Assembly (NCBI GenBank): GCA_046563655.1
Contig: CM102285.1
Span: 6,386,001-6,450,000 of the forward strand
Length of the DNA: 64,000 bases
Source of the DNA: Yuukianura sp. NJ FZ-2021
Lineage: Eukaryota
Direction of reading: 5' to 3'
The translations under genes were made by a program, and so were the position numbers. The notes beneath the pieces are model-generated. The model was given only the letters and a program-made list of their open reading frames with translations, was not told the DNA's origin and searched no databases. This document shows positions 6,507-33,265 of the stretch, one piece after another; the first letter of the stretch is position 1, and every line of letters starts with the position of its first letter.

Positions 6507-6922
6507 TGTTGTCAAAATTAAACGCCCTTTTAATTTTGTTATTGATGGATCTTTTTAAGCAATGTTGCTGATTTTTATTTGGTCAAAAGAAACTTCAGAA
6601 AAAGAATCTTAAGTTTTAATTAGGACAGTTTCCTAGAGAGAGACTTGAAAGAGACTAACTGACTTTCCGGACTCCCGGGTCCTTTTGTTAACTGGCTTAG
6701 AATTTTCGGGAAGTTTCCAGAATATTCTGGAAGCTTCAAGACCAAAGCAACTAGAAAGGTTTTGAGGGTCCCCTATGTAATAACTTTGACCAGAAGTGTC
6801 ATATTTGGTTCCCCCTCAGCTCAACTTGTCATCGTAATTCAGATGTGAGAATCAGTGGTTGAGTTAACCTGTCAGCTAACTTTATATGAGAAAAGGTCAA
6901 GTTTTGACCTCTAAACTCAACA
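6507..6922 (-). repeat. 3' LTR of the copia element
   Basis: Direct repeat of 13743-14158. Preceded on the minus strand by PPT GAGGGAGAG (6923-6931). Confidence 0.97.
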
Positions 6923-7153
6923 CTCTCCCTCAAAAATTGACTTTTCCTGAGTTATTCCTACTTTCAACGTTTTAGATTTGTAAAGAAGATGAACAGACAG
7001 TTATTCCAAGAGTAAAACTTAATTCTAATTAATTGTAAGTTAACCTCTCCCAAATCCATATCTTACAGTAGGGAAGTAACTATCTATACAAAAATAGAAT
7101 TAGTCTAATAATTCTGTTTTTCTTTTAAATTTTTCTCGTTGGAATCTTGTTCC

Positions 7154-9442: not shown

Positions 9443-10261
9443 TTATTTCTCTTCAATTAAGTTTCTTGTGAAGTGATATCTCAGTTCGATATGCTTCGTA
9501 TTCTTATGAAACTGGTGGTTTTGGGTCAACTTAATGGCAGATTGATTGTCCACGTAAATTGGCGTTGGATTTGTCATTTTGATTCCCAATTCTTCCACAA
9601 ATCTCCGAATCCAGACAGCTTCCTTCGCTGCAGCAGCTAACGACACGTATTCGGCTTCACAACTGGATAATGCAATTGTGTTTTGTTTCTGACTCATCCA
9701 GCTTACCGGGCAGTCATTTATGAAAAAGACATATCCAGAAGTTGACCTTCTGGAACTTTGACATCCAGCAAAGTCCGAGTCGCAGTATCCAGCTACAGTG
9801 ATTTTGTTTGATTTGGGGCTGGAAGGAAGACGTAGCTCCATGGATCCCTTGAGGTAGCGTGCCACGTTTTTGGCCATCTTCCAGTGACTTTCGTCGTATC
9901 CAGTCAAATGTTGTGAAAGTTTAGACACTGCAAAAGCAATGTCAGGTCTCGTGCATCTTGCAACAAAAAGTAAGCTTCCAATCAATTCCCGGAATGGTAT
10001 GCCTCCAGTTTCTCCAGCCAGTACCTGTAGAGTAGTGTTAGGTTGCATGGGGACGTTGACTGGCTTACTTTCTTCGAGGTGAAAGTTCCTCAATATCTTC
10101 TTGATTTGTCCAGTTTGTGCCAAGTTCCAGCTCCCATCTTCTCCGTTGTTTAGTTCCAATCCAATGAACACTGAGGGTTTGGAGAAAGTCAGTGGGAATT
10201 TGTTGTTTAATTCTCTGACGACTTTCTCCAGGTCTTCCAGTCTTGGGCCAAGAGCTAGGGC
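9443..10261 (-). pseudogene. pol: Copia RT C-terminal half and RNase H (frameshifted from the upstream ORF; in-frame TAA at 9445-9443)
   Basis: Motifs FRELIGSLLFVARCTRPDIAFAV, GYCDSDFAG, RRSTSGY, SSCEAEY, VDNQSAI and TKHIELRYHF. Confidence 0.93.
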
Positions 10262-13200
10262 CTAATTTTTCCAGGTTCGGTGTCCATTTGAAATACTGAT
10301 GGCTCACTCTCCAGCTGGAGAAAACCAAGACTTTGCAGTGCTTTCTTCAGTTTTTCAAACCACATCAGCGGAGACTGCTTGAGACCATAGATTGACTTCT
10401 GAAGGTGACAAATCAGCGACTTTCCCTTTTCAAATCCATGTGGCTGTGTCATAAACAATGTTTCTTTTAGATCTCCGTGGAGAAAGGCGGTCTTTACGTC
10501 GAATTGAATAATCTCGTAGTTCCATGCACTGGCAACTGCAAGAACGATCCTAACAGATTCGTATCTAGCAACTGAAGCATAAGTATCGTGAAAGTCCACT
10601 CCAGGACGCTGCCAAAATCCACGGCAAACTAAACGAGCTTTGTAACGATCGATTTCTCCATCTGGCTTTCTCTTCAGTGCGAAGACCCAACGGTTGTCCA
10701 GGACTCTTTTCTCTGGAGACCATTTAACCAGACTCCAGGTTTTGTTTTTCTCCAGACTGTTAATCTCATCTTCCATTGCTCTGATCCACTCTAACTTTTG
10801 CGGCGAAGCGAGAGCTTCTTCATAATTGTTCGGTTCCAGGATCTCCAGTCGAGCAACATTTGCATGATATCTGGAAGGAATTTTAATTCCTTCTCTTGGC
10901 CGGAAATTGTATCGCTCCAGAGCGTGTGCTGGAATCTGTGCAATGTAATCTCCAGCAGTAGTTGAAATGGTCAATTTCAAATCATCCGTGCGTTGAACTT
11001 TCCAACTTTTTGGAGAAAGTGAGGATCCAGCTACATTTTCTTCATCCTGGCAGTTATGCTTTTCGGCATTGTCATCTTCTTTCTCCAGTAGTTTTTCTTT
11101 CTTCTCACTGGACTGACGATTTTCTTCATCTCCACTTTCTCCAGACTCCTCCTCAACCACTTCCGTAATTTTCACTTCCGGTTCTTTCTCCTCAAAAACA
11201 ACATTAGTTGCAATCACTATGGAGGCGCTGTCTGGATCAAAAAGTCTAAATTTTTTCTCGCAGACACCATCATAACCCACCAAGTACATTTTTCTGGACT
11301 TTGGTGTCCAGACTGTACGTTTCGCTTCTGGAATGTGGGCATAAGCTTTACATCCGAAGACTCGAACATTTCCGAGGTTTGGTCGCCTCCCCATGATTTT
11401 CTGAAATGGCGTTTGCTCCGGTGAGATGCGACTTAAGGTGCGATTGTGAATGTAGACAGAAGTTGCAACGGCTTCCCCCCATAGAAAGTCTGGAGTGGAG
11501 TAAGTCTGGAGCATCGCCCTTGAAGTATCTTTCAATGTCCTCATGGATCTCTCCACTCTCCCATTCATTTCTGGACAATAGGCTGCTGAAGTTTCGTGGA
11601 TGATTCCATTTTCTTCAAAAAATTTGTTCAAGGTTGAATTCACAAATTCACCTCCGTTGTCACTCCTCACCCACTTCATCCTGTTTCCGGTTTGCCTCTC
11701 CATGAAATGAATGTATCCCTTGATCGCTTCTGCAGCTTCTGACTTTCTCTCCAGAAAGTAAACAGTGCGAAAGTTAGTTGCGTCGTCGATTAGAAGGAGA
11801 AAATAGCTGGCTCCTCCCAGTGACACGACGCTCATTTTTCCAGATAAATCCATGTGGGTTCCAGTTCCTGGTTCCGAATTTCTTTTTGGAACTGAGTTGA
11901 AAGTCTTCCTGGGTTGTTTACCGAATTGACAATTTTCACATGTTTCCCGGAGTTGACCTTTGACCTGCTCCGGTGGAATTCCGTAGACAGCTCCGCGTCT
12001 AACGCTGGCCTGAATGTATTCAGTGTTGATGTGAGCGAGACGGCGGTGCCAAACATCCAAGTTGACTTGTTTGAAAGCCAGAAGTGCTTTTGGCTGAACT
12101 TTCACCGGGAGAAAGTTCATGACGTACATACCTTTGCTCACATGGCATGTAGGTCCAGGACCTTGTTTGTGCGAAAAACGAGCTCCTTCGCTGTCTCTTT
12201 CAATCTTGTATCCGAGGTGAGTCATCTGGAGTTCTGAGAGGAGATTAACAGCTCCAGGAATAAACAAAACATTCTTGAGTGTTTTGTATTGCCATGTACC
12301 GTCAGTAAGTGCAAGTAACTGAACAGTTCCTTCTCCAAGGGCATCAACGGCGGTAGAGTTTAGTTGGTCAACTTTCTCTGGGTTTTGAAAATCTTTGTAA
12401 TCCACAAACCAATCTTTGGAACCACAGATATGGTTTGACGCTCCAGAGTCAGCATACCAGGTGTCCTCCTGGCGTATTGGCCAAGGTTCGCTAGCCTGTC
12501 CAGGCCCTGGCGAACCACTTTTATTCCTTCTACGATCTTGACCAACAAAAGCCTTGGCATGGGGAAAGTCACTTTCTCCATCTCCAGACTTTTCACCTTC
12601 TTTCCGTTGTCCAAGGAAGCCATTCCTTGAAGCTTCTTTCTCCTTCCGCCCTCGAGAACCACCTCTCCCTTTCCCCTGCCCATGGTGGGACTTCTTGGAG
12701 AAAGGCCTTGTGTTTTGCTGAGATTCTCCTGAGGAAGCCTCCGAGTTTCCTTGTCTCAGCTTCGGACAGTCACGTTTCCAGTGATCTTCCGATTTGCACA
12801 AGAAGCAACCAGATTTCTTTGAAGAGAAGCCCTTCTTCCGTTCCTTGGTGGGGCTACTTTCTCTCCCCCTTTTTCCCTGTTCAGAGAGTGCCTTGAAAGC
12901 ACGGCTCCTTTCTTCTCTGGAAGCTCCTGCTGATTCTATGTTCGTTTGGTCAATTTGCTCCTTTTTCAACCGAGCAAAGAGAATGCTCATTGTCTGAGAC
13001 TCAGCTGGTACAGAGTCCCACGCCCTTTTCAGAGCCGTATAACGTGGCTCAGGAAGTGACGAGACAATTTTAGTCACAACTGTATCTTCCTCCATGTTAA
13101 CACCGATTTCTTTTAAATTTCTCCAAATTTCCTCCATCTCCGTGTACGCCTCAACTAAGTTTTGCTTATTACTGACCTTAAAATTGAAAAACGCGCTTAG

Positions 13201-13536
13201 AGTGTGCTGGCGGTTGATGATGCTTGAGTCCGAGTTAATGTCCTTTAGCTTGTCCAGGACTCCCTGGGCGGTGGTGCAGCCAACAATGTGTGTCATTTGG
13301 CTTGCATTCAGAGTGGGTACAATCACTGCCTGAGCCTGGATGTCCTTCTCGTCCCACGTCGTTTGAGCCCCACTTTCGTCAGACTCTGGACGCGGAGTTG
13401 TCCCTGAAGCAACATCCCACAACTTGACAGCCTTGAGGATCAATGTAATTTGCATCTTCCATCGGCTATAGTTCGTCCCATCTAGTTTAACCACGTGCTT
13501 CGTGTCAAACAATGGACGACTATCTCTGCTCGACAT
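10255..13536 (-). CDS. gag-pol: Copia Gag-protease-integrase-RT (N-terminal part) polyprotein
   Basis: Likely ATG at 13536 (MSSRDSRP). Copia Gag KLDGTNYSRWK, zinc knuckle CFLCKSEDHWKRDC, protease WYADSGASNH, WHRRLAH/CENC, integrase HMDL...SDNGGEF...VER, RT YKARLVCRGF, DVKTAFLHG and IYGLKQSP. Confidence 0.95.
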   Translation of the reverse strand: MSSRDSRPLFDTKHVVKLDGTNYSRWKMQITLILKAVKLWDVASGTTPRPESDESGAQTTWDEKDIQAQAVIVPTLNASQMTHIVGCTTAQGVLDKLKDINSDSSIINRQHTLSAFFNFKVSNKQNLVEAYTEMEEIWRNLKEIGVNMEEDTVVTKIVSSLPEPRYTALKRAWDSVPAESQTMSILFARLKKEQIDQTNIESAGASREERSRAFKALSEQGKRGRESSPTKERKKGFSSKKSGCFLCKSEDHWKRDCPKLRQGNSEASSGESQQNTRPFSKKSHHGQGKGRGGSRGRKEKEASRNGFLGQRKEGEKSGDGESDFPHAKAFVGQDRRRNKSGSPGPGQASEPWPIRQEDTWYADSGASNHICGSKDWFVDYKDFQNPEKVDQLNSTAVDALGEGTVQLLALTDGTWQYKTLKNVLFIPGAVNLLSELQMTHLGYKIERDSEGARFSHKQGPGPTCHVSKGMYVMNFLPVKVQPKALLAFKQVNLDVWHRRLAHINTEYIQASVRRGAVYGIPPEQVKGQLRETCENCQFGKQPRKTFNSVPKRNSEPGTGTHMDLSGKMSVVSLGGASYFLLLIDDATNFRTVYFLERKSEAAEAIKGYIHFMERQTGNRMKWVRSDNGGEFVNSTLNKFFEENGIIHETSAAYCPEMNGRVERSMRTLKDTSRAMLQTYSTPDFLWGEAVATSVYIHNRTLSRISPEQTPFQKIMGRRPNLGNVRVFGCKAYAHIPEAKRTVWTPKSRKMYLVGYDGVCEKKFRLFDPDSASIVIATNVVFEEKEPEVKITEVVEEESGESGDEENRQSSEKKEKLLEKEDDNAEKHNCQDEENVAGSSLSPKSWKVQRTDDLKLTISTTAGDYIAQIPAHALERYNFRPREGIKIPSRYHANVARLEILEPNNYEEALASPQKLEWIRAMEDEINSLEKNKTWSLVKWSPEKRVLDNRWVFALKRKPDGEIDRYKARLVCRGFWQRPGVDFHDTYASVARYESVRIVLAVASAWNYEIIQFDVKTAFLHGDLKETLFMTQPHGFEKGKSLICHLQKSIYGLKQSPLMWFEKLKKALQSLGFLQLESEPSVFQMDTEPGKIRP

Positions 13537-13726
13537 TTTGCAAACTTTCACTTTTTCCAAAACAAGTACAACCACAAGTTAGTCCGAGTCCAGAAAAATA
13601 AGTCCAACCACAAACTAGTTCAAGTCCAAAACCAAGTCCAAAACACACACTAGTCCAAGTCCAAAACAAAGTCCACTTTCACTTGTTGTCAAAACCTAAG
13701 AAACAATTCCAGCAACGCAGAACCTC

Positions 13727-13738
13727 CCTCTGCTACCA
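13727..13738 (-). promoter_or_regulatory. Primer binding site complementary to initiator tRNA-Met
   Basis: Minus strand TGGTAGCAGAGG, 4 nt from the 5' LTR. It is complementary to the 3' end (CCUCUGCUACCA) of animal tRNA-iMet. Confidence 0.9.
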
Positions 13739-13742
13739 AAGT

Positions 13743-14158
13743 TGTTGTCAAAATTAAACGCCCTTTTAATTTTGTTATTGATGGATCTTTTTAAGCAATG
13801 TTGCTGATTTTTATTTGGTCAAAAGAAACTTCAGAAAAAGAATCTTAAGTTTTAATTAGGACAGTTTCCTAGAGAGAGACTTGAAAGAGACTAACTGACT
13901 TTCCGGACTCCCGGGTCCTTTTGTTAACTGGCTTAGAATTTTCGGGAAGTTTCCAGAATATTCTGGAAGCTTCAAGACAAAAGCAACTAGAAAGGTTTTG
14001 AGGGTCCCCTATGTAATAACTTTGACCAGAAGTGTCATATTTGGTTCCCCCTCAGCTCAACTTGTCATCGTAATTCAGATGTGAGAATCAGTGGTTGAGT
14101 TAACCTGTCAGCTAACTTTATATGAGAAAAGGTCAAGTTTTGACCTCTAAACTCAACA
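13743..14158 (-). repeat. 5' LTR of the copia element
   Basis: Direct repeat of 6507-6922, adjacent to the PBS. Confidence 0.97.
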
Positions 14159-15344
14159 AAATTTCATTGACTCCGCATCAAGCGGAGAACCTAAAACTTG
14201 TAGTGTTGTGTTTCTTTCTTTTAGGCCTAAAAGGCCTTATTTCATTACAGGGTGAAGGATTGTACATCCTTGTTGAAGTTGGCTGGAATTTAATCCGGCT
14301 TTTGGAATCAGGAATTGTAACGTCGAATTTCGAGCCACCCGGAGATTTGGAAATCTTCAGGTGGGCCGTAATCGGACGATTGTAAAAAAGAACATAAGTT
14401 TTAATAGGACGAGTAAGAAAGCGAGGACTCAGCTTCTTTTCCACTTTCCCAAGAGGATTAAACAAAAAGAGGATTTACGACAAATGATCTTTCACAAGAC
14501 GGGCAAGTGGGAGTAGTTTTACACTTGTTAAACATGTGAATGTCAACTCATCAGTAGTCGACATTCATACAAAACGCCCAGATAATCAATTTGCATAGTC
14601 CCACAACTTCGTTCAATCTTGGACACTAATGACAAAACTGGATCATAGATCCTGGTCATTAACGTCCAACTTTGAACTAAGGTCGCTAAGCGTCCCTCAG
14701 TTGAACGACAAGCTAGATCAAGTGTAAAGTTATAAATATGAGTGGAACTCTGTTAGCGTTAAGTCATTCTCAAATCAGCTTTTGCAGTAAGCTTTCCGCT
14801 TAGAAGTAGTAGTATAGCCAGTCTTAGAATTTCTCTTGCTCTGAGCAAAACTTCCTAAAACTCTGTTAGGTTACTCGTAGATTCCACTCTTATGTGTCAC
14901 TTGGTGAAGGAAATTGGGAAATAAAGCTACAAACACACATCTCCATCGCTGCCTGTGAATCATTTCGTCCCACCACATCACTCAACTGTAGCAGAACAAG
15001 GTAAATGACAATCTCTCTCACTGTTGATCTAAAAACACAGCTCGTTATGAACAGCAGCTTGGAGATGTAACAGGGAGTACGGTGGGACCGGCACCACGTC
15101 TAAGGGTAGGATATGCATAGCTCAGGCGAAGGTTTTTGCGCGGGTAAAGCGGACCTCATTCTGAGGCCGTCAGATTTAGCAGTTTTCCTGAAGGGCCCGG
15201 AAGTGTTACACACATACTTTCAGTACAAGGACATTGTATGCCCTTGCACTGAGAGTGAGTGTGTGTGTGAGAGGATCTATCAATAAAGTTAGTTGATACG
15301 CAGCATCCAACAATGGTGGACGAGCTGAACGAGCTCTCAACTCA

Positions 15345-16691
15345 ATGCTAACTAGAAGTCAAACATCTCAATTAGGGAAGTCTATAAACGAGAAAAGTGA
15401 AAGTTCGAGAGTAGTGAAGGAAAAAAACAAAAAGAAGCCATCAAAGAGTGAATCCGCGATTAGTGAAAGTGGGAAAATAGAAAAACCAGAAGTTTTTTTC
15501 GAAACAGTGGACAGCTTCGACGCACTACTCAACGATTCGCTAGAAGAAGAGATAATAGAGCAGGACTCCAACATGGCCGACGACAAAAGTGGAGTTTCTC
15601 TCCCCGGACCCAGCCGACCACGGGACGACGCTGGACTACTGAATCGGAACCAACAAGTTCTCCTCAGGGGTGAGAAAAAACCCATTATGAAGCAGAAACT
15701 CACGGAAAGGTCGGTAAAGCAGTTTATACATAATTACGAGAATTGGGCCGAGGCTCAGGGGATTACAGACCAAGACAAGAAACGCTATTTCACGACAGCG
15801 TTTGGAAGTGATCTGGCCAATCAGTGGTTCTATGTCCAGTCAGACGCAGTCAAAAGCGTAGCGGTGACTTGGGACACGCTGAAACGAAGCTTCATCGCCA
15901 ACTGCCCAAAAGACGAAGTTGAGCGAGAATTACAACTCTACGATGTAGGTGATCACCCGCAAGAGCTCGGCGAAAAAGCATTGGCCTATATTTTTCGGAT
16001 CCGGGCTAGATTTGGCGAAAACTGGGGCAAGATGGCTGCAGAACATGCTGTAGAAGCTATTGTTAAACACATGCTGCCGCCAATCCGACGCTACCTCCAG
16101 TACCGAGGTGTGCCAGCAAATTGGGCCGATTTGGTGAAAATGACCGGAGAATACGAAGGCAAAGGGATGAAGGAAATCGATGACCTTAGTCCTTCGGCTG
16201 TTAAAGCTACTGTTTCAAAAACCAGAGTAGAGGAAAGTGACATTGCTAAACTGGCAAAAGCACTGGAGAATTTGCCAATACTCGCGGACTTAACCGTGAA
16301 AATAACAAATTTGGAGAGGTCAGTGAAAGCGGTAACTGACCGACAGAACGACAGAAATGGCCCACCTCAAACCGCTCCTAGACCACAGAGGGGTCAAGGT
16401 CAACCCAGACCCTACGACAATCGTAGCTGCTTCATCTGTAAGAAACGAGGTCATCTGGCGGCAAGGTGTTACTACAACAGAGCCAACGACGGCGGAGCAC
16501 AGAACCAGCGTAGCGGAGGGCCAAGCTATCAAAGCCCGCGAAACGGCAGAGAAAGTAACGGTCAATGGGGTTCCAGATACAACTCTCCCCCGAATTACGG
16601 TGGATTTTACCAACAACGAACAAACGGAAATCAAAATTCCGGGCAGGGAAACTTCCAAGGGCGAGCCGCCCAGGGCTCGCCTCGACAGTAA
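15345..16691 (+). CDS. gag: Gypsy Gag (448 aa)
   Basis: First ORF after the PBS, with zinc knuckle CFICKKRGHLAARC and a G/N/Q/R-rich C-terminus. Confidence 0.9.
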   Translation: MLTRSQTSQLGKSINEKSESSRVVKEKNKKKPSKSESAISESGKIEKPEVFFETVDSFDALLNDSLEEEIIEQDSNMADDKSGVSLPGPSRPRDDAGLLNRNQQVLLRGEKKPIMKQKLTERSVKQFIHNYENWAEAQGITDQDKKRYFTTAFGSDLANQWFYVQSDAVKSVAVTWDTLKRSFIANCPKDEVERELQLYDVGDHPQELGEKALAYIFRIRARFGENWGKMAAEHAVEAIVKHMLPPIRRYLQYRGVPANWADLVKMTGEYEGKGMKEIDDLSPSAVKATVSKTRVEESDIAKLAKALENLPILADLTVKITNLERSVKAVTDRQNDRNGPPQTAPRPQRGQGQPRPYDNRSCFICKKRGHLAARCYYNRANDGGAQNQRSGGPSYQSPRNGRESNGQWGSRYNSPPNYGGFYQQRTNGNQNSGQGNFQGRAAQGSPRQ

Positions 16692-16698
16692 CGGGGGC
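16646..16698 (+). promoter_or_regulatory. Programmed -1 ribosomal frameshift signal (gag to pol)
   Basis: Slippery heptamer G GGA AAC in the Gag frame (16646-16652). An 8-bp stem GGCGAGCC/GGCTCGCC follows, and its loop GCCC can pair with downstream GGGC. The -1 frame is the protease ORF. Confidence 0.8.
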
Positions 16699-19600
16699 AG
16701 GAACACACTCTCCAAATCTCGGAAACAGGATTGATCAAAGGGAACAACCGGAAAAATTCAAATTTAAAATTCCAAACACCAGAGAAATCAAAATTCATAG
16801 TGTGGCCGGAAATGAAGGTGGATCGAAGGTAGAAGTTAAGGTAAAAATCGGAGGCCGGAACATTCTTGCCGTCATTGACTCGGGATCTCCTTTGTGCATC
16901 ACCAAGGCCTCTCTAGCGGAAGGATTCAGGAAAATTCCAAACACTGTGGCAAGATTAAATCAGTTACAAGGAAAACTGAAGGACAAGGGCGTTGTGTTCG
17001 TTCCAATTGAGTTTGGAATGCTGACAGTAGATTACACTTGCATTGCCATTGATGACATCGAAGACGACTTACTAATTGGCGAAGATTTCCTAGAGAAATT
17101 TCTTATTCACATGGATCCCGAAGCAAGAATGTGTAGGTCACAAAGAACAGGAAATGTGCCATACGTTTCACAGAAAGTTGACCTTTGGAGCCATCATGGT
17201 ATCCAAATTGATCAAGCGGAAATGCAAGAAATTCCAAGAAGCAGACCTCGGATTCTTAGAATTCGAGCGGCCGAGAAAACAAAAATTCCAGCACGATCAA
17301 GGATCCTTCTGCCAATCCAACCAACGGGGCTAAGGTCAAATGAAGAATGCATTTTAAATGGATCGGAGAAAATTTACAAAAGTTGCCGCTTACTTATTCC
17401 AAGAATGCTGATCAATGGCGAAACACGAGCCATTGTGGTGACTAATCCAACAGAGGAAGATTCAAACATTAACAAGGACACAATTTTGGGAACGGAAATC
17501 AAGAAGGATGAGTATGAAGATTTGACATCGAGGTCACAAGAAAAATCTAGAATGCGTGTCAACCGCATCTCGATTGAGGACGAATTGAAACTGGACATCA
17601 ACCCTGAACTCGACAAAGAAGACAAGAGAAAGTTGCTTGAGGTGATACGGAAACATGAAAAAGCTTTCTCTTGGAATAGTCAAAACATGGGAAGGACCGG
17701 ACGTTTGAAATTTAAGATCAACACGGGTGACCATCCGCCTAAGCGAATAAGACCATACCCAGCGTCGGAGAAAGTCAGAAGAAATTCGGAAGGAAGTTAA
17801 AAGAATGATGGAAGTGGACCTCATCGAGCCAAGTTCATCACCATGGTCAAGCCCAGTCCACATGGTAGCCAAAAAGGACAGCACTGCGAAACGATTCACG
17901 ACAGACTTCCGGTTTCTGAATTCTATTACAACCAACGTCACGGCCTACCCTCTGCCCAGAATCGAAGACATCCTGTCCAGCTTAAGGAACGCAAAATTCA
18001 TCACCGTGATGGATTTATACGCTGGATTTTGGCAGATCGAACTGGATGACAACGACAAAGAAAAAACAGCTTTTGCTACACCGGAGGGGCTATTCCAGTA
18101 CAAAGTGCTACCGATGGGAATTGCTGGAGCACCTGGTCATTTTAGCAAACTAATGGACGTAATTTTAGCGGGCCTCAAACCGGAAGTAGTTGCATCTTAC
18201 GTCGACGATTTGATTATCCACAGTCTCACAATTGACGAACATGTTGAGAAATTGGACAAGGTTCTATCCAGAATCGAAGATGAAGGCTTGACCCTTCAAC
18301 CGAAGAAGTGCCACGTTGGATACCGGGAAACCAGGGTCCTCGGATTCGTCGTGGGGAATGGGGGAATCAAGATGGATGAAAGTGTACTGGCTGGAGTTAA
18401 GGACCTCCCCACACCCACCAAGGTCAAGAAGTTACAGCAAGCGCTGGGATTGTTCAATCATTACCGAAGATTCATCCCCGGATACGCCCAAAAAATGGCG
18501 CCATTGTACAATCTTTTGAAAAAAGACGCAAAATTCCAGTGGGGAAAGGACGAGGAAGACGCCTTCACCTTTGCAAAAGAAGCCCTGGTATCAGAACCGA
18601 TACTTGCCTTATTTCAACCAGGGTTGGAGACCAGACTGCAGACAGATGCAAGCACAGTGGGGATCGGAGCCACCCTAACCCAGATCCAGAAGGATGGAAC
18701 CGAAAGACCTGTGGCATTTATAAGTAGAACGCTGACCCAGGCAGAACAGAGATGGACAACTACGGAACAGGAATTGCTGGCGATTGTCTTTGCATTGAAG
18801 AAACTAAAACAATTCCTAGATGGTCATCCAGTCAAGATTTACACCGATCATCATGCACTATGCTGGATCCTGCAAGCGAAGAAAGAAGAAATTACTCCGA
18901 AGTTGACTCGAATGGCCATTAAACTCTCCGAATTCGAAATTACGGGGATCTACTACATCAAGGGGAAGAATAATCACGTGCCGGACGCCCTATCCAGATG
19001 CCCATGCGTCCCAAAAGATCCGATCCAGCAGGAGAAAGCGACAAAAAACCGGAAACCAGAAGGAGTCCGAATCATGTCAATAAGACCCGAGACCTTAGCA
19101 GAGTTGCAGAAGCGTAACACCAAAATGGAAGCAATTCGTAAGAAAATCTCGGATGAAAACGGAATTCATTATCGGATTATCAACGACATCCTATATTTTT
19201 TGGATGGGAGTGGCGTAACTAAGCCTTGCATTCCAGAGGAATTGCAGGACGAAGTCCTAGCTTCCTGCCATGACGACCCTCTGAGTGGCCACCTTGGATT
19301 CACGAAGACTTATGACCGTGTCAGAGGACGCTATTTTTGGCCAAAATTGAAGAAAAGTGTCTCTCAATTTGTGACGTCATGCCACGAGTGCCAGCTTAGG
19401 AAAATTCCACGGAGAAAGCCTTATGGAGAAATGCAGTGCATTCCTGTCCCGGACCAAGCATTCGATCACGTCCAAATTGATGTAATGGGGCCATTTAATA
19501 GGTCAGCTAAAGGAAATAAATACGTAGTCACCGCAGTGGACTACCTGACGAAGTGGATAGAAGCGAAAGCCCTTAGAAATGCGGACACGCTCGATTTGGC

Positions 19601-20661
19601 AAAATTTCTGGTGGACCAAGCGATTTGTCGCCACGGCTGCCCAAGGGTCATCCAAAGTGATCAAGGAAGCATCCTGACGAGCGATCTTTTCAAAAATATC
19701 AACCATCTGCTAGGAATTGACCACAACAAGAGCACAGCTTATCATCCTCAATCTCAAGGGCTCGTGGAAAAGTCACATTCAACATTGACAGACTGCATTT
19801 CTATGTACGTTAGCTCTAATCAGAAGGATTGGGACATTTTTCTACCGCATTTGGTCTTCGCTTATAATACTACAACTCAAAAGACCACAAGAATGACACC
19901 ATTTTTTCTAATGTACGGCCGAGAACCTAAACTACCAGCTTTAGCGCTACTACCGGAATACACAGCATGCCAAGAGGTCGACGACCTTCATAAGAGGATT
20001 TCTGAGGCCAGACTGCTAGCGAAAGCACACATCGAGGAGGAGCAAGAAAAATACGCCAAAAGGGTCAACTCAAAATTGACGCCGCCTCCGGAGTTTGAAA
20101 TTGGATCCGAAGTCGTCATTCGAAAATTTGCAAAAAAGAAAGGACTTTCGGCCAAACTCATGGAGTACTTCAGTGGTCCCTACATTGTTATGGAAAAGAG
20201 GTCACCAGTCAACTACGTAGTGGAATATTCGGCTGGCAAAGCTAAGCACCGCAAAACAGTCCATGTAGATAAGATGAAACCGTATTTACGGAGGAATAAG
20301 GATTTGCATCTTATTCATGAAAAAAGGAGACGAAGGCGAAAGCAATGCAGATTCAGGCTTTACAAATGAAGATCCACCAAGAGAGCCACCAAAAACTACA
20401 ACCGATGAGGAGGAGAACAAGGGGGAAGACAAATTAGGAACAATGAACATGACGGGAGACGCCCCGAATCAATCCACAGATTCAAATCATGATCTTAGCA
20501 AAGGAATAGGATCTGGAAAAGATGACGTCATGAAAAACTTAACGGAAGATGGAAAATCACTTAAAAGTCAAAATCAAGATCTAACTATCCACACATCTAC
20601 TCAACGTTACAATTTGAGACCCAGAAGGAAAAACGACCAAATTGTGAAGAAACAAAAGTAA
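16646..20661 (+). pseudogene. pol: Gypsy Pol (protease, RT, RNase H, integrase) with two single-base frameshifts (~17780, ~20322)
   Basis: Protease VIDSGS, RT SSSPWSSP, YPLPRIED and YVDD, RNase H TDAS/EQELLAIV/TDH, integrase HHCC, IDVMGP, SDQGS, a GPY motif and C-terminal RYNLRPR. Confidence 0.93.
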
Positions 20662-20747
20662 CTACAGGGGTTGCTAGGGAAGGCTCAAGTTATAGTGAAA
20701 GTCAGGGGAAAGTGAAAACTGATAACTACTGAATAATAATCTCAAGC

Positions 20748-21563
20748 ATGACCGACTACAGTCATGACAGTGACATCACTTATTTCAGTGACGAAAGCTA
20801 TGTTAGTCGCACCGGCAGTGAAAGAGAAAGTGAAAGTTCAATAGAATTTGGGGCGGAAAGTGAAGACAGAGATGGGCTCCCGCCACCATATAACCCCAGA
20901 TGGAGAGATTGGTGGAGGAACATCACCTTCAGCGACTTCAGTCGACGGCGGCTGCACCTGTCGCCGACGGACACACGTCAAACGCCCGAACAACGAATTC
21001 GATATTTGCGGGCATGCAACCTTTTGAGCAGGGAAGAGAAAGACGCAGCGGTTAGTTGCGTCAGCTACTGGCTCCGGGAAGGGGTTTCAAAATGTAAGGA
21101 ATCGGACGTCACAGCATGCTGGCATTGTCATCACTGGAAAATGATGACAGAAAAGGAGAGAATGGCGGCCGCCGACACCCGCAGGTATAGAGTTCCAGCC
21201 GTACCCACCCATGAGAACCGCGCAACCCGGGGTGCGACTGGGAAGCTGATAGTCCTCGGGATCCTCCTAGGAATGATACTATTGACAAAAATGGCAAAAG
21301 GTGAAATTACGAATACAACGATGATGGGATCAAGTAGCAGTGCAGAAGAAGAGAATAACGTTCCCTGGTACGAGGGGTCAATTATGATAATATTTGACGT
21401 CTGCTGCATCATCATGGTTGCCGTCATGGTGATTTTTGCAGTGAAGAAAAGATACGACGGAAGGTACTGCCGATGTCCCAGCTCAGGCGCAGTCCCACTT
21501 GAAGTCTATTTCCAGAACCTATCCTCAAACGAATTGCTGAATGGAATGGAGGAATCAACCTAA
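20748..21563 (+). CDS. Gypsy ORF3: 271-aa predicted membrane protein of unknown function
   Basis: Intact ATG-TAA ORF between integrase and the 3' LTR. Acidic N-terminus, Cys/His cluster, hydrophobic segments LIVLGILLGMILL and IMIIFDVCCIIMVAVMVIFAV, then KKRYDGRYCRC. Confidence 0.75.
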   Translation: MTDYSHDSDITYFSDESYVSRTGSERESESSIEFGAESEDRDGLPPPYNPRWRDWWRNITFSDFSRRRLHLSPTDTRQTPEQRIRYLRACNLLSREEKDAAVSCVSYWLREGVSKCKESDVTACWHCHHWKMMTEKERMAAADTRRYRVPAVPTHENRATRGATGKLIVLGILLGMILLTKMAKGEITNTTMMGSSSSAEEENNVPWYEGSIMIIFDVCCIIMVAVMVIFAVKKRYDGRYCRCPSSGAVPLEVYFQNLSSNELLNGMEEST

Positions 21564-22869
21564 CCAGTGAATTACACTTAACCTAGCCTCATACAGGACC
21601 TCATCTACTGAACCGAAATCTGCCAACGACCATTACTGACCACTGCCGGAAACTGGAAATCTAAACTGAATGAATCTAAGGATGGGTGATATCAAACTTT
21701 AAGCTTGCATTATTTTAATTAGCGGGGATGTCAAAAATATTTAATCTACAGGCCCTTAAAGTTAATAGAAAAATATCCCCGGACTTGAGTTTCTAAAAAT
21801 ATCTTCATATTGACCCAGGTCAGTAATATTATTAATTTAAGGAACAAATTTTAAGAACAAAAATATCTTCTTTTCCTCATATTTTGGGCAATATAGACAT
21901 ATTTTTGACAACCCTGATAATAATTAGTTAATTAACAATAATTGGTAAATTACTTTCAGTAATGATACTCTTATGTGATAAGTGAAAACCCTCATAACTC
22001 TCTCTAACCTTCTCTGTCTAACTGCAGAGCTGTGGAGGCCACTTTCCTATCTCACGTCCACACCTGTAACTTTCACGCGGTAATTAAGGAAGGTGAGAAT
22101 GAAGAGGAGGCCTCTACAAAGAGACGTGCACATAGCAGTTTCGGTATTCCCCCTGGGGGTACTGACCTAGCGTTGCTACTGCGGGGTCTCTCCCGGGCAC
22201 GGAAAATGGAAAGGATGCGCCAAGGACACAGTCATACGTACCATTCACACAACAATCAAAATGCAAATCCTCTTTGTCATGGGAATCAAAGTCATCTGGT
22301 TATCTGCTTTCACGTCACCTACATAGAATAAGTCCACTTTTTAGAATAATAAGTCGAATTAAGTTTAACTTATCATTAGAATAGGACACTTATCTGATAA
22401 TGTAAGATGTAAGATGTAAGTGATGAAGGTAGATGTAAGTCAGAACGTTTTCTGGATTTCAAACGATGAACTTAATTAGGAAGTTTGAGTTTTAACTTCT
22501 GTTTTACTTCAATTTGGCCTTTTTGAAAATGTCTTTTGTCTCCTTAGTTAATATAGCACTATAGCTAAAATATGATTCAGAGGTGCAGTAGCTCCTCTTT
22601 TGTTGTGTTGGGAGTGTTACACACACACTTTCAGTACAAGGACATTGTATGCCCTTGCACTGAGAGTGAGTGTGTGTGTGAGAGGATCTATCAATAAAGT
22701 TAGTTGATACGCAGCATCCAACAGAAGGGTGAAAGTACTTAGGTAGAGTGATATGGGCATTAGACTCATGCAGGGCTTAGGGATTGAGCCACCTTAGTTA
22801 ACCATTTTCAGAGAATGGCTAGCTTGAATAAGGTAAAGTTAGGGAACTTTCAATAATCACTCGTTTCAG

Positions 22870-23136: not shown

Positions 23137-25027
23137 CAATGACGAAGATGATCGGCTGTGCACGGACATAATTACTGCTGGACGGTCCTTGGACATGACA
23201 AATGTACATCCACCACGAAATGCAAGATCCGTATGCCATTTCACCTTTTCAGACGTTCGGAGACAACAACAACTAATGAAAAGGTGAAGATTATGATTTC
23301 AAAGTATGATAACGAATTGAGGAGGAGTCGCATACATCGAAAGCGGCAACGGTATTATCCGGAACTTCAGAACTTGTACATTTCAGATTAGGGCTGTGGT
23401 TTCGAGAAAAAATTAGTTAGTTCTACTTTAGCAGTCGACCAAAGCGGTTCAAATTTCAGAAGAATAAGATCATGGAGTCTAGGCGACACTACACAAGTGA
23501 AAAGGAAGGGAAGTGGTTCAAGTGTTGGTACACGAATTCAGATGGCAGAAGAAGGTCACATTCAAGAGAGATGGCTGGCATACGGAAATCCTCATAAAGG
23601 ACACTCCCTTCATCGTTGAAAAACTCATCCAGTGCTACATTCTTGCCGGAAACACCCAAAATCCAAAAACCCGCCCAGAATTCAAAAAAATTATGGGGGA
23701 GGCGAACATCTTATACCTGAACAAGCAAAGGAACTTGAGGTACGATGGTGAGTCTTAAAAATGTAAGACTCTTCATCGGGTGAAAAAAATCAAGGAAGAC
23801 AATTGGAACGAAGATGTTTGGGGAGTTAGGGGATTTGGAGATGGAGTAAAGACATGGAATATAACAATTGGCTACGTTCTCTAAATGGTTCAAATTCCGA
23901 CATGTCATCGTTCTCAGGGGATGACGGACATTCCAAGAACAAAGACGGAGTTCATGCTAATAAGAGATAGTAACAAATTCCCAGCTATAACTGAAGCAAC
24001 GTCAGCAGTTTCCTACACTCCCAAATCGTTTTCTCCTACCTTGCCCTACTTCTCTTTCATGTTCCATTTGATTTCTACTCGAACCTTCATCATCTTAACA
24101 CTACTACTACTACTCCTTTCTTTTGCTGGCAATAATGGCGTCAAACGATCAAAGTAAAGTAAAACAAATTTCTGTCTCTGCTGCTTTGGAGTTGCAATGT
24201 TTAAAAAGTAAAAAAATTCTCGTGCTCTGTTTCAGACGAATCTTTGGACGTGATTATGTTTGCTCCCAGCGATGCGGCTTTTGATTAGGACAAGCGGTTG
24301 TGGGTTTTTAGCCTGGAGACCATGTACAAGGAGAAGGTGTACCACTGGGTCTACTTTCGCCGAAACTATCACATTCACACGGTCAGCTCGGTCCCGTAAG
24401 TTGTGCGTCGACTCTCTACCTTTTACTTGAGGGCAACTGCAGGAGGGCCGCAACAATTGGAAACCTTCAAGACGACCCTGTACACTTGCCTCAGCCACAT
24501 TGAAACCTTCAACCAGGAGCTGGAACACGTCCCACACGACTAAATCTCTTTCCCTTTTCACTTGGTAAAAACAAAATTTTAATCTTTTTACTTGATTCGG
24601 AACGAAAAAGAGATGTGGATTTTGTAAATTTTATTATTTTCTTTTGGATTTAATTGAATGAAGTACAGTATTGATTAATGTTAGAGAAGGAAGGAGATAA
24701 TTTTTTTGAGAGTGTCCTTAGCTTTTTTCTCACAAATTGTCTAACTAGCCTATCATTTATTTTGCAATTCGAGTTGAAGTTGCAGTAGATGGACGACAGC
24801 AAGTGTGGTAAGGTGTCTATAAAAAATAGATTGCATATTCTCGACAGAGTTGGGAGATTGGGCTTTGAAGAGTCGGGATGTTTTCCATAATTGAAGTCTG
24901 GAGCCGAGATGCAAAGTTGGAAAAGGCCTTGTCGTAAAACGGTTTGTCACAAGTGTCTTGGGTCTAAACTGGAACAAGAAAACGGACGCTCTGTTTTGTG
25001 ACTCAGTTCCACTAGACATTCCACTTA

Positions 25028-26394
25028 CGAGGCATGCTTTTTCACGTGATCTCGAAATTTTGAATTTTAGAGTTATAGTCGAGTTCCTGATGTAAGCACA
25101 AACATTGCGGTGGTAGTATTAGTTGCGAATGCAAAAAAAAAAAAAAAATCTAAAATTTCTACCCCAGTATTTGAACCCGCGTCCCCCACCTCAAAGGACA
25201 AAAAACGCCCAGACGCTTTCTCACTCACAAGCAAGAGAAACTATGGACACCTGGACTGAAAATTCCCCTTTTTGTCGTCGACACAAAAACGACTTTTTCA
25301 CAGCTAACATTAATTTTAAAAACTCCATTTTTTTTTTCAAAAAATGGACGTAAATCCAATCGAAATTTCGAAAAAGTTCGTCAGAATTGTTGAGTATGAG
25401 TTCGGGGAGTATAATTTAAACACTATGTGAGAAAGTACAGACGCTTTTGCTGACAAGTTGTACTCAACTTTCCTCCAGCTCCTTGATGGCATTGTTTTTG
25501 GAGAAGAAGAGGACTTGATAGCTCAAGACAAAGGGAAAGTCAAAAGTTTCTCCCAATAGTCATTTCAAAAACGTTCCACAACCTTGTTTTTAAACATTTT
25601 TTTGAAAAAATGGATGAAAATTTTGAATCTGACAATGAAAGTATTGATGCCAACGAAATCCCTTTACACGAAAAGAAAAGAATGCTGGATTTTGTTGACT
25701 TACATCCTAACTACAGCCTACCTACACTAAAACGTAAAGGATGTGCTTCACTTCCATCCAAATCTCGTCTACCCTTTTGGAGAAATCAAGTTTTGGAATG
25801 AGGAACAAGAAGAGAAAAGCTACGCCAAATTAAAAAGTTTGTGCTTCAAAATTTCGTGGCTTCACGTGACTCAGGCAAAATCCTCCGGCCAAAAAATCTG
25901 CAACAATGGGGAATTCAAAAGGCAACCGAAATTCAAGCAAAATTTTTTTAGAGCAAGTAGAAGTTGGGCTGACAATTTTAAATCAAAACATCGAATTAAA
26001 AGTCGTCGAATAAACCTTCTCCTAAGCCGTCACGTAGTTTCAAATTCAGAGGATCTCATGGAGAAAGCAGGGTGGTTTCAAGTGAGAGTGAAGGAGAAAT
26101 TGAAAAATTTAAAATTAATTTTCACCCGCGAAAAAAGTCGTTATTGTGTCGACGACAAAAAGGGGAATTTTCAGTCCAGGTGTCCATAATTTCTCTTGCG
26201 CGGCGAGTGAGAAAGCGTCTGGGCGGTTTTTGTCCTTTGAGGCGGGGGACGCGGGTTCAAATACTGAGGTAGAATTTTTTTTTTTTTTGGCGTTCGCAAC
26301 TAAAACTACCAACAAAATGTTTGTGCTTACATCAGGAACTCGACTATAACTCTAGAATTCCAAATTTCGAGATCACGTGGAAAAGCATCCCTCG
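25028..26394 (+). mobile_element. Internally deleted pogo/Tc1-mariner DNA transposon with ~295-bp imperfect TIRs
   Basis: TIRs at 25028-~25320 and ~26108-26394 (CGAGG.ATGCTTTT.CACGTGATCTCGAAATTT...), with TA on the left. The interior is a degenerate CENP-B-type HTH (FRASRSWADNFKSKHRIKSRRI) with no DDE domain. Confidence 0.85.
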
Positions 26395-28865
26395 TTAGTA
26401 TTACTAAAAGAGTAGTTTTGTCTGTTTTTCAAAAAGTTTTTGACCCCCTCGGATTTTTGGCTCCAGTGCTCAGCGTGCCAAAGATGCTTCTTCAGAAAGC
26501 CTGGAGTGACAGCAAAAAGTGGGACGAAGAAGTGACAGAAGAAATCAAGTCGGAATTTTTGTCATGGTCCAAGGAACTGTCAAGGGTGCTGGAGAAAATT
26601 CAAATTCCGCGGGGCGTAACTGGTAACGTGGGCCAAGACTGCCACTGCCAATTATATGTTTTTGGAGATGCATCTCAGAAGCGCTATGCAGCAGTAGCGT
26701 TTCTGCGTGTGGAGACGACGTCAGATGTCAGTTTACCTCGTGCAGTGCATGTTCGGGAATTTGCTTTCTGTTTTGCAGAGATGGGAATAGGCTACTTAAT
26801 TTTAACCTAACTTTAACTTAGAATTACTGGAAGAGATGAGACTGAAAGTGAAAGGGTTAGGATTTATTTTAGTGCTATTTACATTACTCTTATCCACTTG
26901 AGTGGAGAGAGAAAGGGTTAAGCGTGAGTTTTAAGGTGCATGCAATTTACTATTACTATTACTGTACGACTTGCGCACTAGAGTAAGGACAGTAAGTGTA
27001 ATTTCCAAATAGCCGCTCTCTTCACATTGCTATAGGATAAGTTACCGCTCTTTGGTGTATTTTTGCTATTATTAATAGTATAAGCAAGGAGGAGTGTTCC
27101 TGCAATATACATATTCATACAACAGTCTTCGTTTCATCTTCCTACTGTAAGGTATTCTCTTTCAATGAGTCATCGAATAGCCATCTTAGGTTTTCTTCTC
27201 TTTCATGTTTTTACCAATTACTAATTAGTCAAAATAAATACTAAATCAAATCCACTTGACGTCAGAGCGGTCATCGATTATTTAGAACCACCGAACATCA
27301 AGCATTCTACATTTCAGTGCAAGTCTCGAGGCGCCCCATAAAGCTAATGCAAATTGGAACTACTCGCCACCACCATCGATGCAAGACTAGGAGTTAGTGT
27401 CAAAGAGGCCCTTCATTTGAGTGACATCACAACGTACTAAGTGTCTGAATCCTCTACAGCACTGTCGTGAGGAAGTGACTACTGGGGGACGTTCGTGGGA
27501 AACAGCTAAAGAAATTTGTACTTTGACCAGAGTCAGTGACTGGAACCACATACCAGGAGTTCACAATCCAGCAGATGTTCCGTCTAGAGGCGTCAGCCCC
27601 ATCAAATTCCTCGAGACGAAATGGTGGGAAGGACCTGCGAGGCTGAAACTGCGGAAGGAACAGTGGTCGAAAGCAGAATTCGTCATGGACGAAGTAGAAG
27701 TGAACAGGGAGAGAAGAAAGAACAATTCGTCTCTCGTTAATTTGAATGCTGCATCTAAACGTTGGTACGTGAGGAAGAATCAGTACGAAGCTAATCTCCG
27801 TCTCCTTTGTTATGTTCTTAAGTTCGTGAATTTGCTCAGGAAAAAGTCAGTTGAGAAGAGCTCCCGACCTACCAGAGATTAGAGAAGATTAGCAGAAGAG
27901 AGCACACAGCTTCATTTCGTTTTCCAAAGATCAAAGACCAAAGCTACGATTTTCGCGTAGCTCCAAATATCTACTGAGAAAGTCACTTGGATTAGGCAAA
28001 TTGTCATTGGGGCAACTGGAGAAAGCACTTTGTGAAGTGGAAGCTACCATCAATCATCGCCCATTGGCTTACGTGACCGAAGCTCTGAAAGATTTTGTGC
28101 CTTTGACTCCGGCTATGTTCATGCACAATCTTCCCTACAGTGAGCTACCAGAAACCAGTGCAGTCATCGCGTCAACTATGAAGAAGGAGGAGAACACTCT
28201 ACAGCAGCTCCACCAAGAAATCAGGAAACGTTTTAGATCTGAATAATTACGCCAATTAACTCAAAGCGGAAACGAGCAGGAGATCCGTGAATTCAAAATT
28301 GGAGAAGTCGTACTGGTTGGAATCGACAATCACAAGCAGATCTTCTGGCCATTGGAGAAGATTGTGGAACTCCTTACAGGGAAAGACGGAGAAGTACGAG
28401 TTGCGAGGATTCGGACCAAGAATGGCACTCAACTTCGTCCCGTACAGCGTTTGATTCCATTGGAGATCCGAGATGACGTCACAGAAATCTCACTGGTCCA
28501 GACCCGAAGTGTCGCGACGAAAAGAGAATAAAACACCCAAGAAAACTTCAGGAACAGGAGTCCGTTGTAGAACTGGACGTGGAGGTGGAATCGGATTAAG
28601 TTGTAACCTGGAGTGGAAGAGAGGTGAGGAAGCTAAACCGATTCTCCGTCAACTAGATTAGGTTTAGTTCTTTATTTTCATTTCCATTTCAAAGTTAAAG
28701 TTTAGGTTAATTTGATTTGGTTAAGTTATGGTTTCATTCGGAGTTTTTTTTTCAATAGAGTTTCAAAGTAATTGTTAAAAAAGTTTCTACGTAATTTCTT
28801 ACATCAGAAATTGGGAAGAAATGTTGGATAATTTAGTTTTTCTAAATGTTAACTTAGGAAGTGAG

Positions 28866-30069: not shown

Positions 30070-31052
30070 CAAGGTAGGGCGATGCTCAAGGGTTGAGCAT
30101 AGGTCTTCTGGAGGGAGTTGACAATTGATACGACATTTAGACCGGCCTACCGTAAAACTGTGGACGAACTGAGAAACCGTTTTCATGTAGTTGCTGCACC
30201 ATGTGGCTCAAAATTTTCAGTGCGGATGTAAGGTCCTATTTTGTGCATGAGTTGCACCAAAATTGAATTGGCAAATCTATCATTTAATTGAACCAAAATC
30301 ATGTTCCAGGTTTTGAGCCCCAAAATATTTGCACTGAATTAATGTTCTTAATTTGTTGAGCAAGATGCACATAATGTATTGTCGGTGTTGCCATGGCAAT
30401 GTACTATTAGCGAAAAGAGCGTAAACGAAACAGCCTCAAAATAATGATGTCGAAGTTGAGATTTGAGCATGATGCACAAATTTGAACGCTGAGGAGGATG
30501 GGTCGAATATCCCTTCTTTCAAATTGAAATCGGTTCATGAAAATGCACAGTGTATTAAATTAAGTGCATAAGTTATTGAGCCGAAAATCGCTTGTTTATA
30601 ATCAAAATTATAAAAATTTCTTGCAAAGGCAAATTAGAACCCTGCCAAGCACTGCTTACGCATTACGAATTTAAGCCGGATTTTCTACCCTCTGATCGGT
30701 GTTAATTTAACAACGTAATTAAACATACTGCCAGAAAATGACCAGATCAAAACTCCGTTGTTTATAAATATTTTGAGTGCAATCGAAACTAAAACAGTTT
30801 TGCGGAGCCACGATACTGCGGGTACGTAGTGTAGCCGCCTGCTTCTACGTTGTTAATTTAACACTTTGAGTGCAATGTAGACCTACTGAAAACTCTTGAG
30901 CCATACATAACCCCCCGACTGCGATGGGGCTAATGTTTCAGAGCAATGAGTACTAAAAAACGTGACGGACGGACGGACAGACAGACAGACGGACAAAGTC
31001 GTATCAATAGTCTTCTTCAGCACGTCGTAGACGTGCGTCTCCAGAAGACTAA
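30068..31052 (-). mobile_element. Helentron-associated (DINE-1/HINE-like) non-autonomous element
   Basis: Subterminal inverted repeats GTCTTCTGGAG (30103-30113) and CTCCAGAAGAC (31039-31049), with a partial repeat at 31009. (GGAC)n(AGAC)n microsatellite at 30964-30995. Terminal hairpin ATGCTCAA-GGG-TTGAGCAT. Inserted in an A/T run with no TSD. Confidence 0.75.
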
Positions 31053-32369: not shown

Positions 32370-33265
32370 CAGGGTGTACCACCAGAAAGGAAACGCCAAA
32401 AATTCGTTGCTATGAGCAACTTAACAAAAACTTGTAAACATGGAGGGGAAAACGTACTCAATAATAACGAGCTTTAAAAAAATTTTTTTCTTAATTTCTG
32501 CCAGACCCGTTCGATCGTTCGATCGGACTTAGCAAGGTCTGGTTCACAGTGAAATTTTTTATGGTCTAGGGCGTTAGCAAGGTTTGGTTCAAAGTGAAAA
32601 TTTTTATACTCAGCGGTCTCAGCAAGGTCTGGTTCACAGTGAAAATTTTTATGGTCTAGGGACTTAGCAAGGTCTGGTTCACAGTGAAATATTTTATGCT
32701 CAAGGGCGTTAGCAAGGTTTGGTTCACAGTGAAAATTTTTATACTCAGCGGTCTCAGCAAGGTCTGGTTCACAGTGAAAATTTTTATGGTCTAGGGACTT
32801 AGCAAGGTCTGGTTCACAGTGAAATATTTTATGCTCAAGGGACTTAGCAAGGTTTGGTTCACAGTGAAAATTTTTATGCTCTAGGGCCTTAGCAAGGGTC
32901 TGGTTTTCAGTAGAAATTTTTATACTCATTACTCAACGGTCTTAGCAACGTCTGGTTTTCACAACTTCAGGTGTGAGTTTCAAATTTTGTTGTGTAACCA
33001 AATTTTGTAACAAAAAAACCAAACCTCTGATGTTTTGATTTGAAATCAGATACTGGGCCCAAGAAAACCCTCACTGAATGAGTGACATCAAATCACAAAA
33101 TTCTCCAAAATTAAACGTTTGGACTGGTGTGAACGGTGATCACATCGTGGGACCGTTTTTCTTAGGCTTTTTTTTTCTAATATTTGCTACGGTTTCCCCC
33201 TCATATTCGATCAAATAAACAAAGAAATTAGTTTTCGAGCGTTTCCTTTCTGGTGGTACACCCTG
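32370..33265. mobile_element. Tc1/mariner-type MITE containing a minisatellite
   Basis: Perfect 27-bp TIRs CAGGGTGTACCACCAGAAAGGAAACGC, with a TA TSD on both sides. Confidence 0.92.
32527..32960. repeat. 45-bp minisatellite, ~9 units
   Basis: Unit AGCAAGGTCTGGTTCACAGTGAAAATTTTTATGGTCTAGGGACTT, with three alternating variants. Confidence 0.95.

Follow-up and report, generated by a model that had tools for sequence, protein, structure and literature searches.

What does a Ty3/gypsy element encode behind pol when the frame in the env position has only 271 codons? This question is raised by a locus of Yuukianura sp. NJ FZ-2021 (GenBank assembly GCA_046563655.1, contig CM102285.1, positions 6,386,001 to 6,450,000); the window analysed here is that whole stretch of 64,000 nucleotides. 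An earlier note had proposed that the frame, ORF3, ends in a small membrane module resembling the FAST fusogens of reoviruses, that this module stands in place of env, and that it serves cell-to-cell transmission without Env.

The element that hosts ORF3 belongs to Ty3/gypsy (Metaviridae): it has LTRs with a target-site duplication, and gag is followed by protease, reverse transcriptase (RT), RNase H and integrase. Its parts lie in the window as follows.

15204..15312, + strand: 5' LTR (TG...CA), 109 bp, with the target-site copy GAAG before it and a PBS-like sequence after it
15297..16691, + strand: gag, 464 aa from stop to stop, with a weak zinc-knuckle match (Pfam zf-CCHC, E 0.058)
16559..20661, + strand: pol (PR-RT-RNaseH-IN), Pfam domains in the order protease, RT, RNase H, integrase
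20295..21690, + strand: lineage-specific 3' cassette (integrase tail, ORF3 and start of the 3' UTR)
20748..21563, + strand: ORF3, 271 aa without internal stop, read here as an env derivative lacking the F ectodomain
22060..22614, + strand: 3' UTR block, 73-88% identical to full-env siblings and to copy 2 (see below)
22615..22723, + strand: 3' LTR, 109 bp, followed by the target-site copy GAAG

The LTR pair has one mismatch in 109 bp, and the GAAG duplication is found on both sides. In the window copy the pol frame is interrupted twice, near 17750-17790 and again near 20320, so that pol spans three frames; in the siblings L009 and L013, elements of the same genome with a full-length env, pol is one long frame. 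The second break is absent from copy 2 and from the runs X1, X2 and X3. The gag DNA is about 95% identical to that of the sibling in L010, and the approximately 95% DNA identity of gag-pol to L009 and L013 ends at 20294, with divergence until the shared 3' UTR block. This pattern suggests that the window element arose by recombination and thereby carries another 3' cassette than the siblings, the putative junction lying near 20294.

As the earlier note had it, the 271-aa frame lies intact behind pol, and the segments described in it could be recovered at residue level.

20748..21227, + strand: predicted cytosolic leader, aa 1-160, acidic in 1-49 and Arg-rich in 50-160 (17 Arg)
21228..21302, + strand: signal sequence, aa 161-185, colinear with the signal of the sibling Env; cleavage at A-K-G predicted
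21303..21401, + strand: putative relic of the F2 N-terminus, aa 186-218, with the N189 sequon, MG at 193-194 and the strand motif Y-E-x-S-I-x-I-I-F-D
21381..21443, + strand: transmembrane segment, aa 212-232, its first third corresponding to the F2 strand
21444..21560, + strand: cytosolic tail, aa 233-271, with 5 Lys/Arg in the first 15 residues and CRC

The signal-like hydrophobic stretch reaches a Kyte-Doolittle 19-mer peak of 1.96 at residues 162-180 and ends at A183-K-G185. It is followed by the 26-aa ectodomain (residues 186-211, polar, sequon N189-T-T) and by the 21-aa transmembrane segment (TM; residues 212-232, peak 3.07), which contains the CC pair (C219-C220) and, in addition, Asp217. 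Juxtamembrane basic residues (K233-K-R, R239), C241-R-C and the 39-aa tail are all present, as is the internal ATG at 21324, from which a 79-aa product starting MGSSSS would be made. Pfam returned only DUF4012 at E 0.17 on ORF3, the best Atlas score was 0.84 and thus below the useful range, and the fold model (pLDDT 47.2) had no match at E≤0.001 in a comparison with BFVD.

Searching the own genome with ORF3 gave six matches among seven candidates, namely two copies of ORF3 and four siblings at 34-40% identity. The sibling frame at C12 is, with 845 aa from the first Met, much longer than ORF3. Against Baculo_F clusters the sibling Env reached an Atlas score of 0.95, and its model (pLDDT 52.9) matched the F proteins of RSV and parainfluenza virus (46 matches at E≤0.001, best E 2.8e-8). 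It carries a furin-like site, a fusion-peptide-like segment and, judged by the model, probably a class I F fold. Pfam yielded nothing useful on the sibling Env, and a sequence search of the PDB with the Env profile found a single coiled-coil match (E 0.0008). ORF3 lacks the furin site, fusion peptide, heptad repeats and Cys-rich head of a functional F-type Env.

The remainder of ORF3 follows the sibling Env from its N-terminus onwards. Residues 1-185 aligned with the leader and signal of the sibling Env at a score of 175, which none of 300 shuffles reached. Identity peaks in a Cys/His block at aa 81-148 (30/68; elsewhere 17/80, 9/37, 7/33 and 0/53), and the two proteins have in common the motif C-x3-W-x-REGV-x-KC-x7-CWHC-x2-W (in ORF3, C104-x3-W-x-REGV-x-KC116...C124-WHC127). 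For ORF3 186-271, the best local match in the whole sibling Env was aa 208-218, placed on the diagonal of the leader at the first F2 strand. The score of this match by itself was reached in 122/300 shuffles; placement on the same diagonal occurred in 19/2000 shuffles, and with as high a score in 4/2000. We also built a profile of the F2 N-terminus from 86 of 156 homologues, the others being without a 30-60-aa segment there, and left out ORF3 and L009. The profile score of ORF3 was reached by 2, 2 and 0 of 1000 shuffles (three shuffle kinds). The profile columns agree with ORF3 at Y208 (Tyr in 78/85), E209 (Glu in 58/86), S211 (Ser/Thr in 82/86), I214 (Leu/Ile in 79/86) and F216 (Tyr/Phe in 84/86) and disagree at M213 (Pro in 68/86). 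In pairwise comparisons the F2 match was seen with L023 (2/500 shuffles) and P0006 (0/500), whereas L022 (407/500) and P0004 (133/500) gave no signal and count against it. Because of the diagonal, the profile and the column matches, we take the 'ectodomain', together with the first third of the TM, to be where F2 begins. Held-out members have median scores of 39-42 bits, the relic 7.6-7.7 bits, and a score as low is seen in 1/86 members; more eroded than in 85/86 held-out members, the relic fits an old loss or a long release from the F fold.

With leader, signal and F2 strand colinear, the claim that the module stands in place of env did not hold: ORF3 is derived from env. Judged from these alignments, it is very probably an env gene that has lost approximately 500-600 residues of fusion ectodomain, its lineage being errantivirus-like Ty3/gypsy with an F-type Env. 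An F-type Env encoded, like ORF3, by a third ORF behind pol is known (Chary & Hayashi, eLife 2026, PMC13524379, in excerpts); new is a headless F-type env that keeps a long conserved leader. In the excerpts of that article, metazoan errantivirus F ectodomains have a signal peptide on one side and a single TM on the other, and neither a leader of ~200 aa nor a headless form nor a second C-terminal TM is mentioned for F-type Env.

A second TM is what the full Envs of the own genome have: their C-termini carry two hydrophobic segments separated by an A-x-A-like site. A profile search with the sibling Env gave 1298 matches at E≤0.001, while a word-based search with it found no relatives; an alignment search with Env detected two metagenome loci and none in viral contigs. 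We surveyed the C-termini of 157 sequences, the 150 best of the 1298 profile matches and 7 from the own genome. Of these, 117 were classifiable, the other 40 being fragments, lacking the anchoring CxC or having another spacing. Two C-terminal segments were found in 76/117 F-type Envs and one in 41/117. The 76 two-TM Envs, which come from the set L009 (6179-3555 on the minus strand), L020-L035 and P0001-P0150, have an anchor, a signal-peptidase-like site, a tiny ectodomain, a second TM and a basic patch. The pattern P-x(0-4)-small-x-small occurs in 67/76 linkers (shuffled mean 48.5, maximum 61 in 500), at least three Lys/Arg follow the second TM in 72/76, and MGxxxS/T precedes it in 0/76; the median tail is 58 aa. 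It is probable from this layout that the two-TM F-type Envs release a small N-out membrane protein of FAST-like topology. In mostly open-access literature, including excerpts of PMC13524379 and PMC12992720, we did not find the two-TM layout or a released protein described for F-type errantivirus Env. It is the full-length sibling Envs whose C-termini resemble the alphavirus E2-6K junction, where, according to excerpts of PMC5580485, another hydrophobic signal comes after the glycoprotein anchor and cleavage by signalase frees a small membrane protein. Alphavirus 6K precedes E1, whereas the errantivirus small protein would end the chain with a basic patch and a cytosolic tail. If real, a second signal and a C-terminal small membrane protein would mean an accessory function beyond gag, pol and env.

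Other features were seen in these elements. A fourth ORF of ~430 aa follows env in L025 (2150-837, minus strand), with like frames in L026, L033 and L034; that of L025 has a weak match to the 3'-5' exonuclease family PF01612 (E 0.00028, below cut-off). In the metagenome element L038 (3-4886, plus strand), a single frame of 1628 aa covers pol as well as an F-type env of the two-TM type.

Could the C-terminal part of ORF3 be this small protein? On such a reading, a broad clade of F-type Envs would be polyproteins that release a C-terminal small protein, and ORF3 would consist of the leader and that protein, with the start of F2 joined to the second TM. ORF3 would then be a natural intermediate between an enveloped retroelement and one transmitted from cell to cell independently of Env, and a candidate origin of sORF2/FAST-like genes. 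We hold this to be very unlikely. A rival alignment, in which both hydrophobic stretches of ORF3 are paired with the C-terminal pair of the Env, was borderline (27/500 shuffles). Neither the anchor (TM-A) nor the second-TM (TM-B) profile matched residues 219-271 better than shuffles (378 and 246/500, respectively): ORF3 186-240 scored 6.7 bits with TM-B (held-out median 15.6), and an origin of the ORF3 TM from the anchor, suggested by resemblance to the eye, was rejected at -0.3 bits (held-out 5th percentile 7.5). Downstream of ORF3, the three forward reading frames between 21399 and 22610 contained no Env relic with a positive bit score. We also rejected an origin of the short form from spliced RNA, as the sibling env has no donor-like site at the F2 strand, an argument that is weak given the divergence.

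DNA of the ORF3 cassette is present at only three places in the genome assembly. Copy 2 (L007; G000:C3, about 6339600-6342705, minus strand) lies 66 kb from the window copy and is a non-autonomous element of 3106 bp with its own 87-bp LTRs and an ATGT duplication. It contains part of the integrase, no gag, no RT and an intact ORF3; between the two genomic ORF3 copies one codon differs, and no selection signal is seen. The third piece, on C10, ends at window position 20668, ahead of ORF3. Two copies whose LTRs differ have the ORF3 frame intact, as does run X2. The 16 differences listed within ORF3 comprise 7 synonymous and 9 non-synonymous changes and no stop; the list is complete for X2 (21/21 contig differences) and shows 17/26 for X3, with 6 gaps not placed. 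X1 and X2 are one sample, X3 comes from another study, and X5 is without codon 195. The resulting ratio was 0.38 (p 0.049, or 0.22 allowing for transitions). Synonymous changes are in mild excess, which is not significant once transitions are allowed for, and these variants provide only mild evidence of purifying selection on ORF3.

Two junctions in related sequences may be recorded here. The stretch 3519-7604 of L017, embedded in BEL/Pao-like pieces, is a fragment belonging to the ORF3 lineage and ends at window position 20668, where the junction reads like a splice donor, possibly by chance. Run X3 includes a contig with a joint in the 3' UTR similar to that of L007.

What might a headless env product do? 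We propose that translation would start at M1, that aa 161-185 would target the chain to the ER and that cleavage by signal peptidase behind G185 would yield two products, the leader of 185 aa and a type I membrane stub of 86 aa. The stub would be glycosylated at N189 and probably palmitoylated, and would serve mainly to allow synthesis and processing of the leader as in the full Env. The Cys/His motif of the leader would probably bind zinc and its Arg-rich surface the RNA of the element; both activities are read from motif and charge because the ORF3 model is poor and no fold was found. ORF3 would thus take a route like that of MMTV Rem, with a precursor split into a Rev-like leader and a small C-terminal product. 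According to excerpts of the respective reports, Rem is cut into a Rev-like signal peptide of 98 aa and Rem-CT (PMC5371415), and Fsp, which is the signal peptide of the FIV Env, 175 aa long and called the longest, acts alone (PMC10128041). ORF3 resembles both in its very long Env signal peptide, to which a function of its own can be assigned by analogy, and it has the layout of Rem, a long leader ending in a signal sequence followed by a short C-terminal product, with cleavage predicted. The likeness is one of layout; MMTV Rem and FIV Fsp belong to Retroviridae and ORF3 to Metaviridae. MMTV Rem is made by splicing, whereas the short form of ORF3 is fixed in the DNA. The leaders of ORF3 (185 aa) and the sibling (~205 aa) exceed in length the 175 aa of FIV Fsp as excerpted, and that of ORF3 adds the Cys/His motif.

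From the sequence features we give an even chance to ORF3 being such a Rem-like precursor, cut into an Arg-rich, probably zinc-binding leader and a membrane stub. That the leader is the functional part of ORF3 we likewise put in the balance, and RNA handling as its specific job is a tentative and rather doubtful assignment. The element is unable to infect through the ORF3 protein alone. The earlier suggestion that the N-terminal part is a second product is likely right. The conservation of the leader with the sibling Env could date from the time when the lineage still had a full Env. A leader that outlasts the fusion protein, in the manner of a Rem- or Fsp-like accessory, would add function beyond gag, pol and env; in the literature searched, we did not find a Cys/His leader of ~200 residues described for invertebrate errantivirus Envs. 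In database searches, ORF3 had no relative of near length (242 candidates) and none of greater length by two-sequence alignment (7998 candidates), the latter being weak evidence; relatives of the leader were found neither in metagenome or viral contigs nor beyond the own genome and near kin. The F-type Env homologues P0094, P0006 and P0129 have leaders of 100-270 aa. By eye, that of P0094 shows two CCHC-like knuckles before the signal, which could be a gene-calling fusion.

ORF3 may instead be a functionless remnant, a decayed env whose short open frame and chance hydrophobic extension ride in a few young copies. Just two full ORF3 copies exist in the assembly, nearly identical to each other, the pol of the window copy is broken, and 9/16 natural differences alter the protein. 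Yet all 271 codons remain open in spite of the erosion of the F2 relic, which exceeds that of 85/86 held-out members, the Cys/His/Trp motif is intact, synonymous changes are mildly in excess, and a copy without gag and RT kept ORF3; we regard decay without function as unlikely. Alternatively, the protein could stay uncleaved as a two-pass adaptor, its leader tying Gag capsids to membranes for budding or transport, or it could interfere with the full Env of the siblings. Its two hydrophobic stretches and large cytosolic N-terminal domain would suit such a role, the genome also contains full-env siblings whose capsid is the same, and the Env leader peptide of foamy viruses offers a precedent. 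The first stretch, however, is colinear with a signal ending in a small-residue site, and ORF3 is without the heptad repeats needed for joining F trimers; we consider an adaptor or interfering role quite improbable.

The fusogen proposed in the earlier note would be a peptide of 79 aa (internal start) or 86 aa (released by signal peptidase) that drives local cell-cell fusion and Env-free capsid transfer. It is indeed plausible that there is a small single-pass peptide, oriented N-out, whose TM is accompanied by a basic patch and juxtamembrane cysteines, and the assembly's two ORF3 copies share these features, as well as MGxxxS, with sORF2 of the Drosophila MDG1 group and reovirus FAST proteins as excerpted. 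In excerpts of Voichek et al. (10.1101/2025.03.14.642691), sORF2 genes lie downstream of pol in 7/22 lepidopteran consensus sequences, and several of the criteria given there apply to ORF3: ectodomain of 10-50 aa (here 19-26), tail below 150 aa (39) and at least three Lys/Arg within 15 aa behind the TM (5). The TM contains CC, and palmitoylated dicysteines replace myristate in some FAST proteins (PMC12945298, in excerpts). Among the 1964 Met that the window encodes in six frames, only 8 form MGxxx[ST], both genomic copies carry it, and the non-autonomous copy 2 keeps ORF3 intact. On the other side, sORF2 and FAST proteins are, in the excerpted sources (10.1101/2025.03.14.642691; PMC12945298), stand-alone ORFs of 60-210 aa with one TM and amphipathic motifs, whereas ORF3 is an env derivative of 271 aa with two hydrophobic stretches. 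Its hydrophobic moments, from our own calculation and not from Heliquest, are 0.18 in the ectodomain and 0.57 in the tail, values that 815/1000 and 293/1000 shuffles, respectively, also attain. The ectodomain is the F2 relic, and conservation with the sibling Env lies in the leader, not in the membrane module. G194 itself may plausibly be the conserved F2 glycine: Gly stands 10-15 residues before the Tyr in 78/82 homologues (nearly all 11-12; 14 in ORF3, which needs an insertion of 2-3 residues), preceded by Met in 1/78; the insertion needed counts in favour of the earlier note. M193 comes after 15 other ATGs of ORF3; 7 share its frame, M192 being one of these. Splicing to the best splice-acceptor-like site nearby (21270) would still place three in-frame ATGs before M193. 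A product of signal peptidase would begin at E186, which precludes myristoylation, and it is on this route only that the N189 sequon, which persists despite a change of codon 190, is relevant. At codon 195, where both genomic copies carry Ser, Pro follows the Gly in 3/3 covering runs (X1, X2, X3; 2 samples, 2 studies), and the PROSITE pattern PS00008, G-{EDRKHPFYW}-x-x-[STAGCN], excludes Pro (PMC9405953, in excerpts). We found no published direct data on Pro after a myristoylated Gly and judged the allele by this pattern. Of the proposed N-myristoylation motif, the letters MGxxxS are thus kept in all alleles seen, but internally and, unlike in sORF2/FAST as excerpted, not as a myristoylation pattern, since the Pro allele of X1, X2 and X3 fails it. 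With 15 ATGs upstream, a signal sequence ahead and Pro after Gly, the internally initiated, myristoylated FAST-type protein was not borne out. Fusion activity of ORF3 is possible, and we think there is little likelihood of either peptide being a driver of fusion and capsid transfer. The tempting FAST call, corrected here, is a caution that filters for MGxxxS, TM and basic patch can catch env relics.

Further repeats were noted around the element. A neighbouring copia element occupies window positions 6502-14037 (minus strand), with 300-bp LTRs that are 99% identical; its last frame (9442-7157) encodes 762 aa, shows three peaks of hydrophobicity as well as a TM at the C-terminus and is env-like by sequence. 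Broken copia elements with env-like frames behind RT/RNase H were found in L019 (3874-7080, plus strand) and L008 (2417-3034, plus strand), and that of L019 has ~155 bp in common with the gypsy 3' UTR block. The window also contains a long inverted-repeat element (25023-26399), a 45-bp tandem array (32484-32933) and a pair of direct repeats 9.9 kb apart (30187-30931 and 40066-40810).
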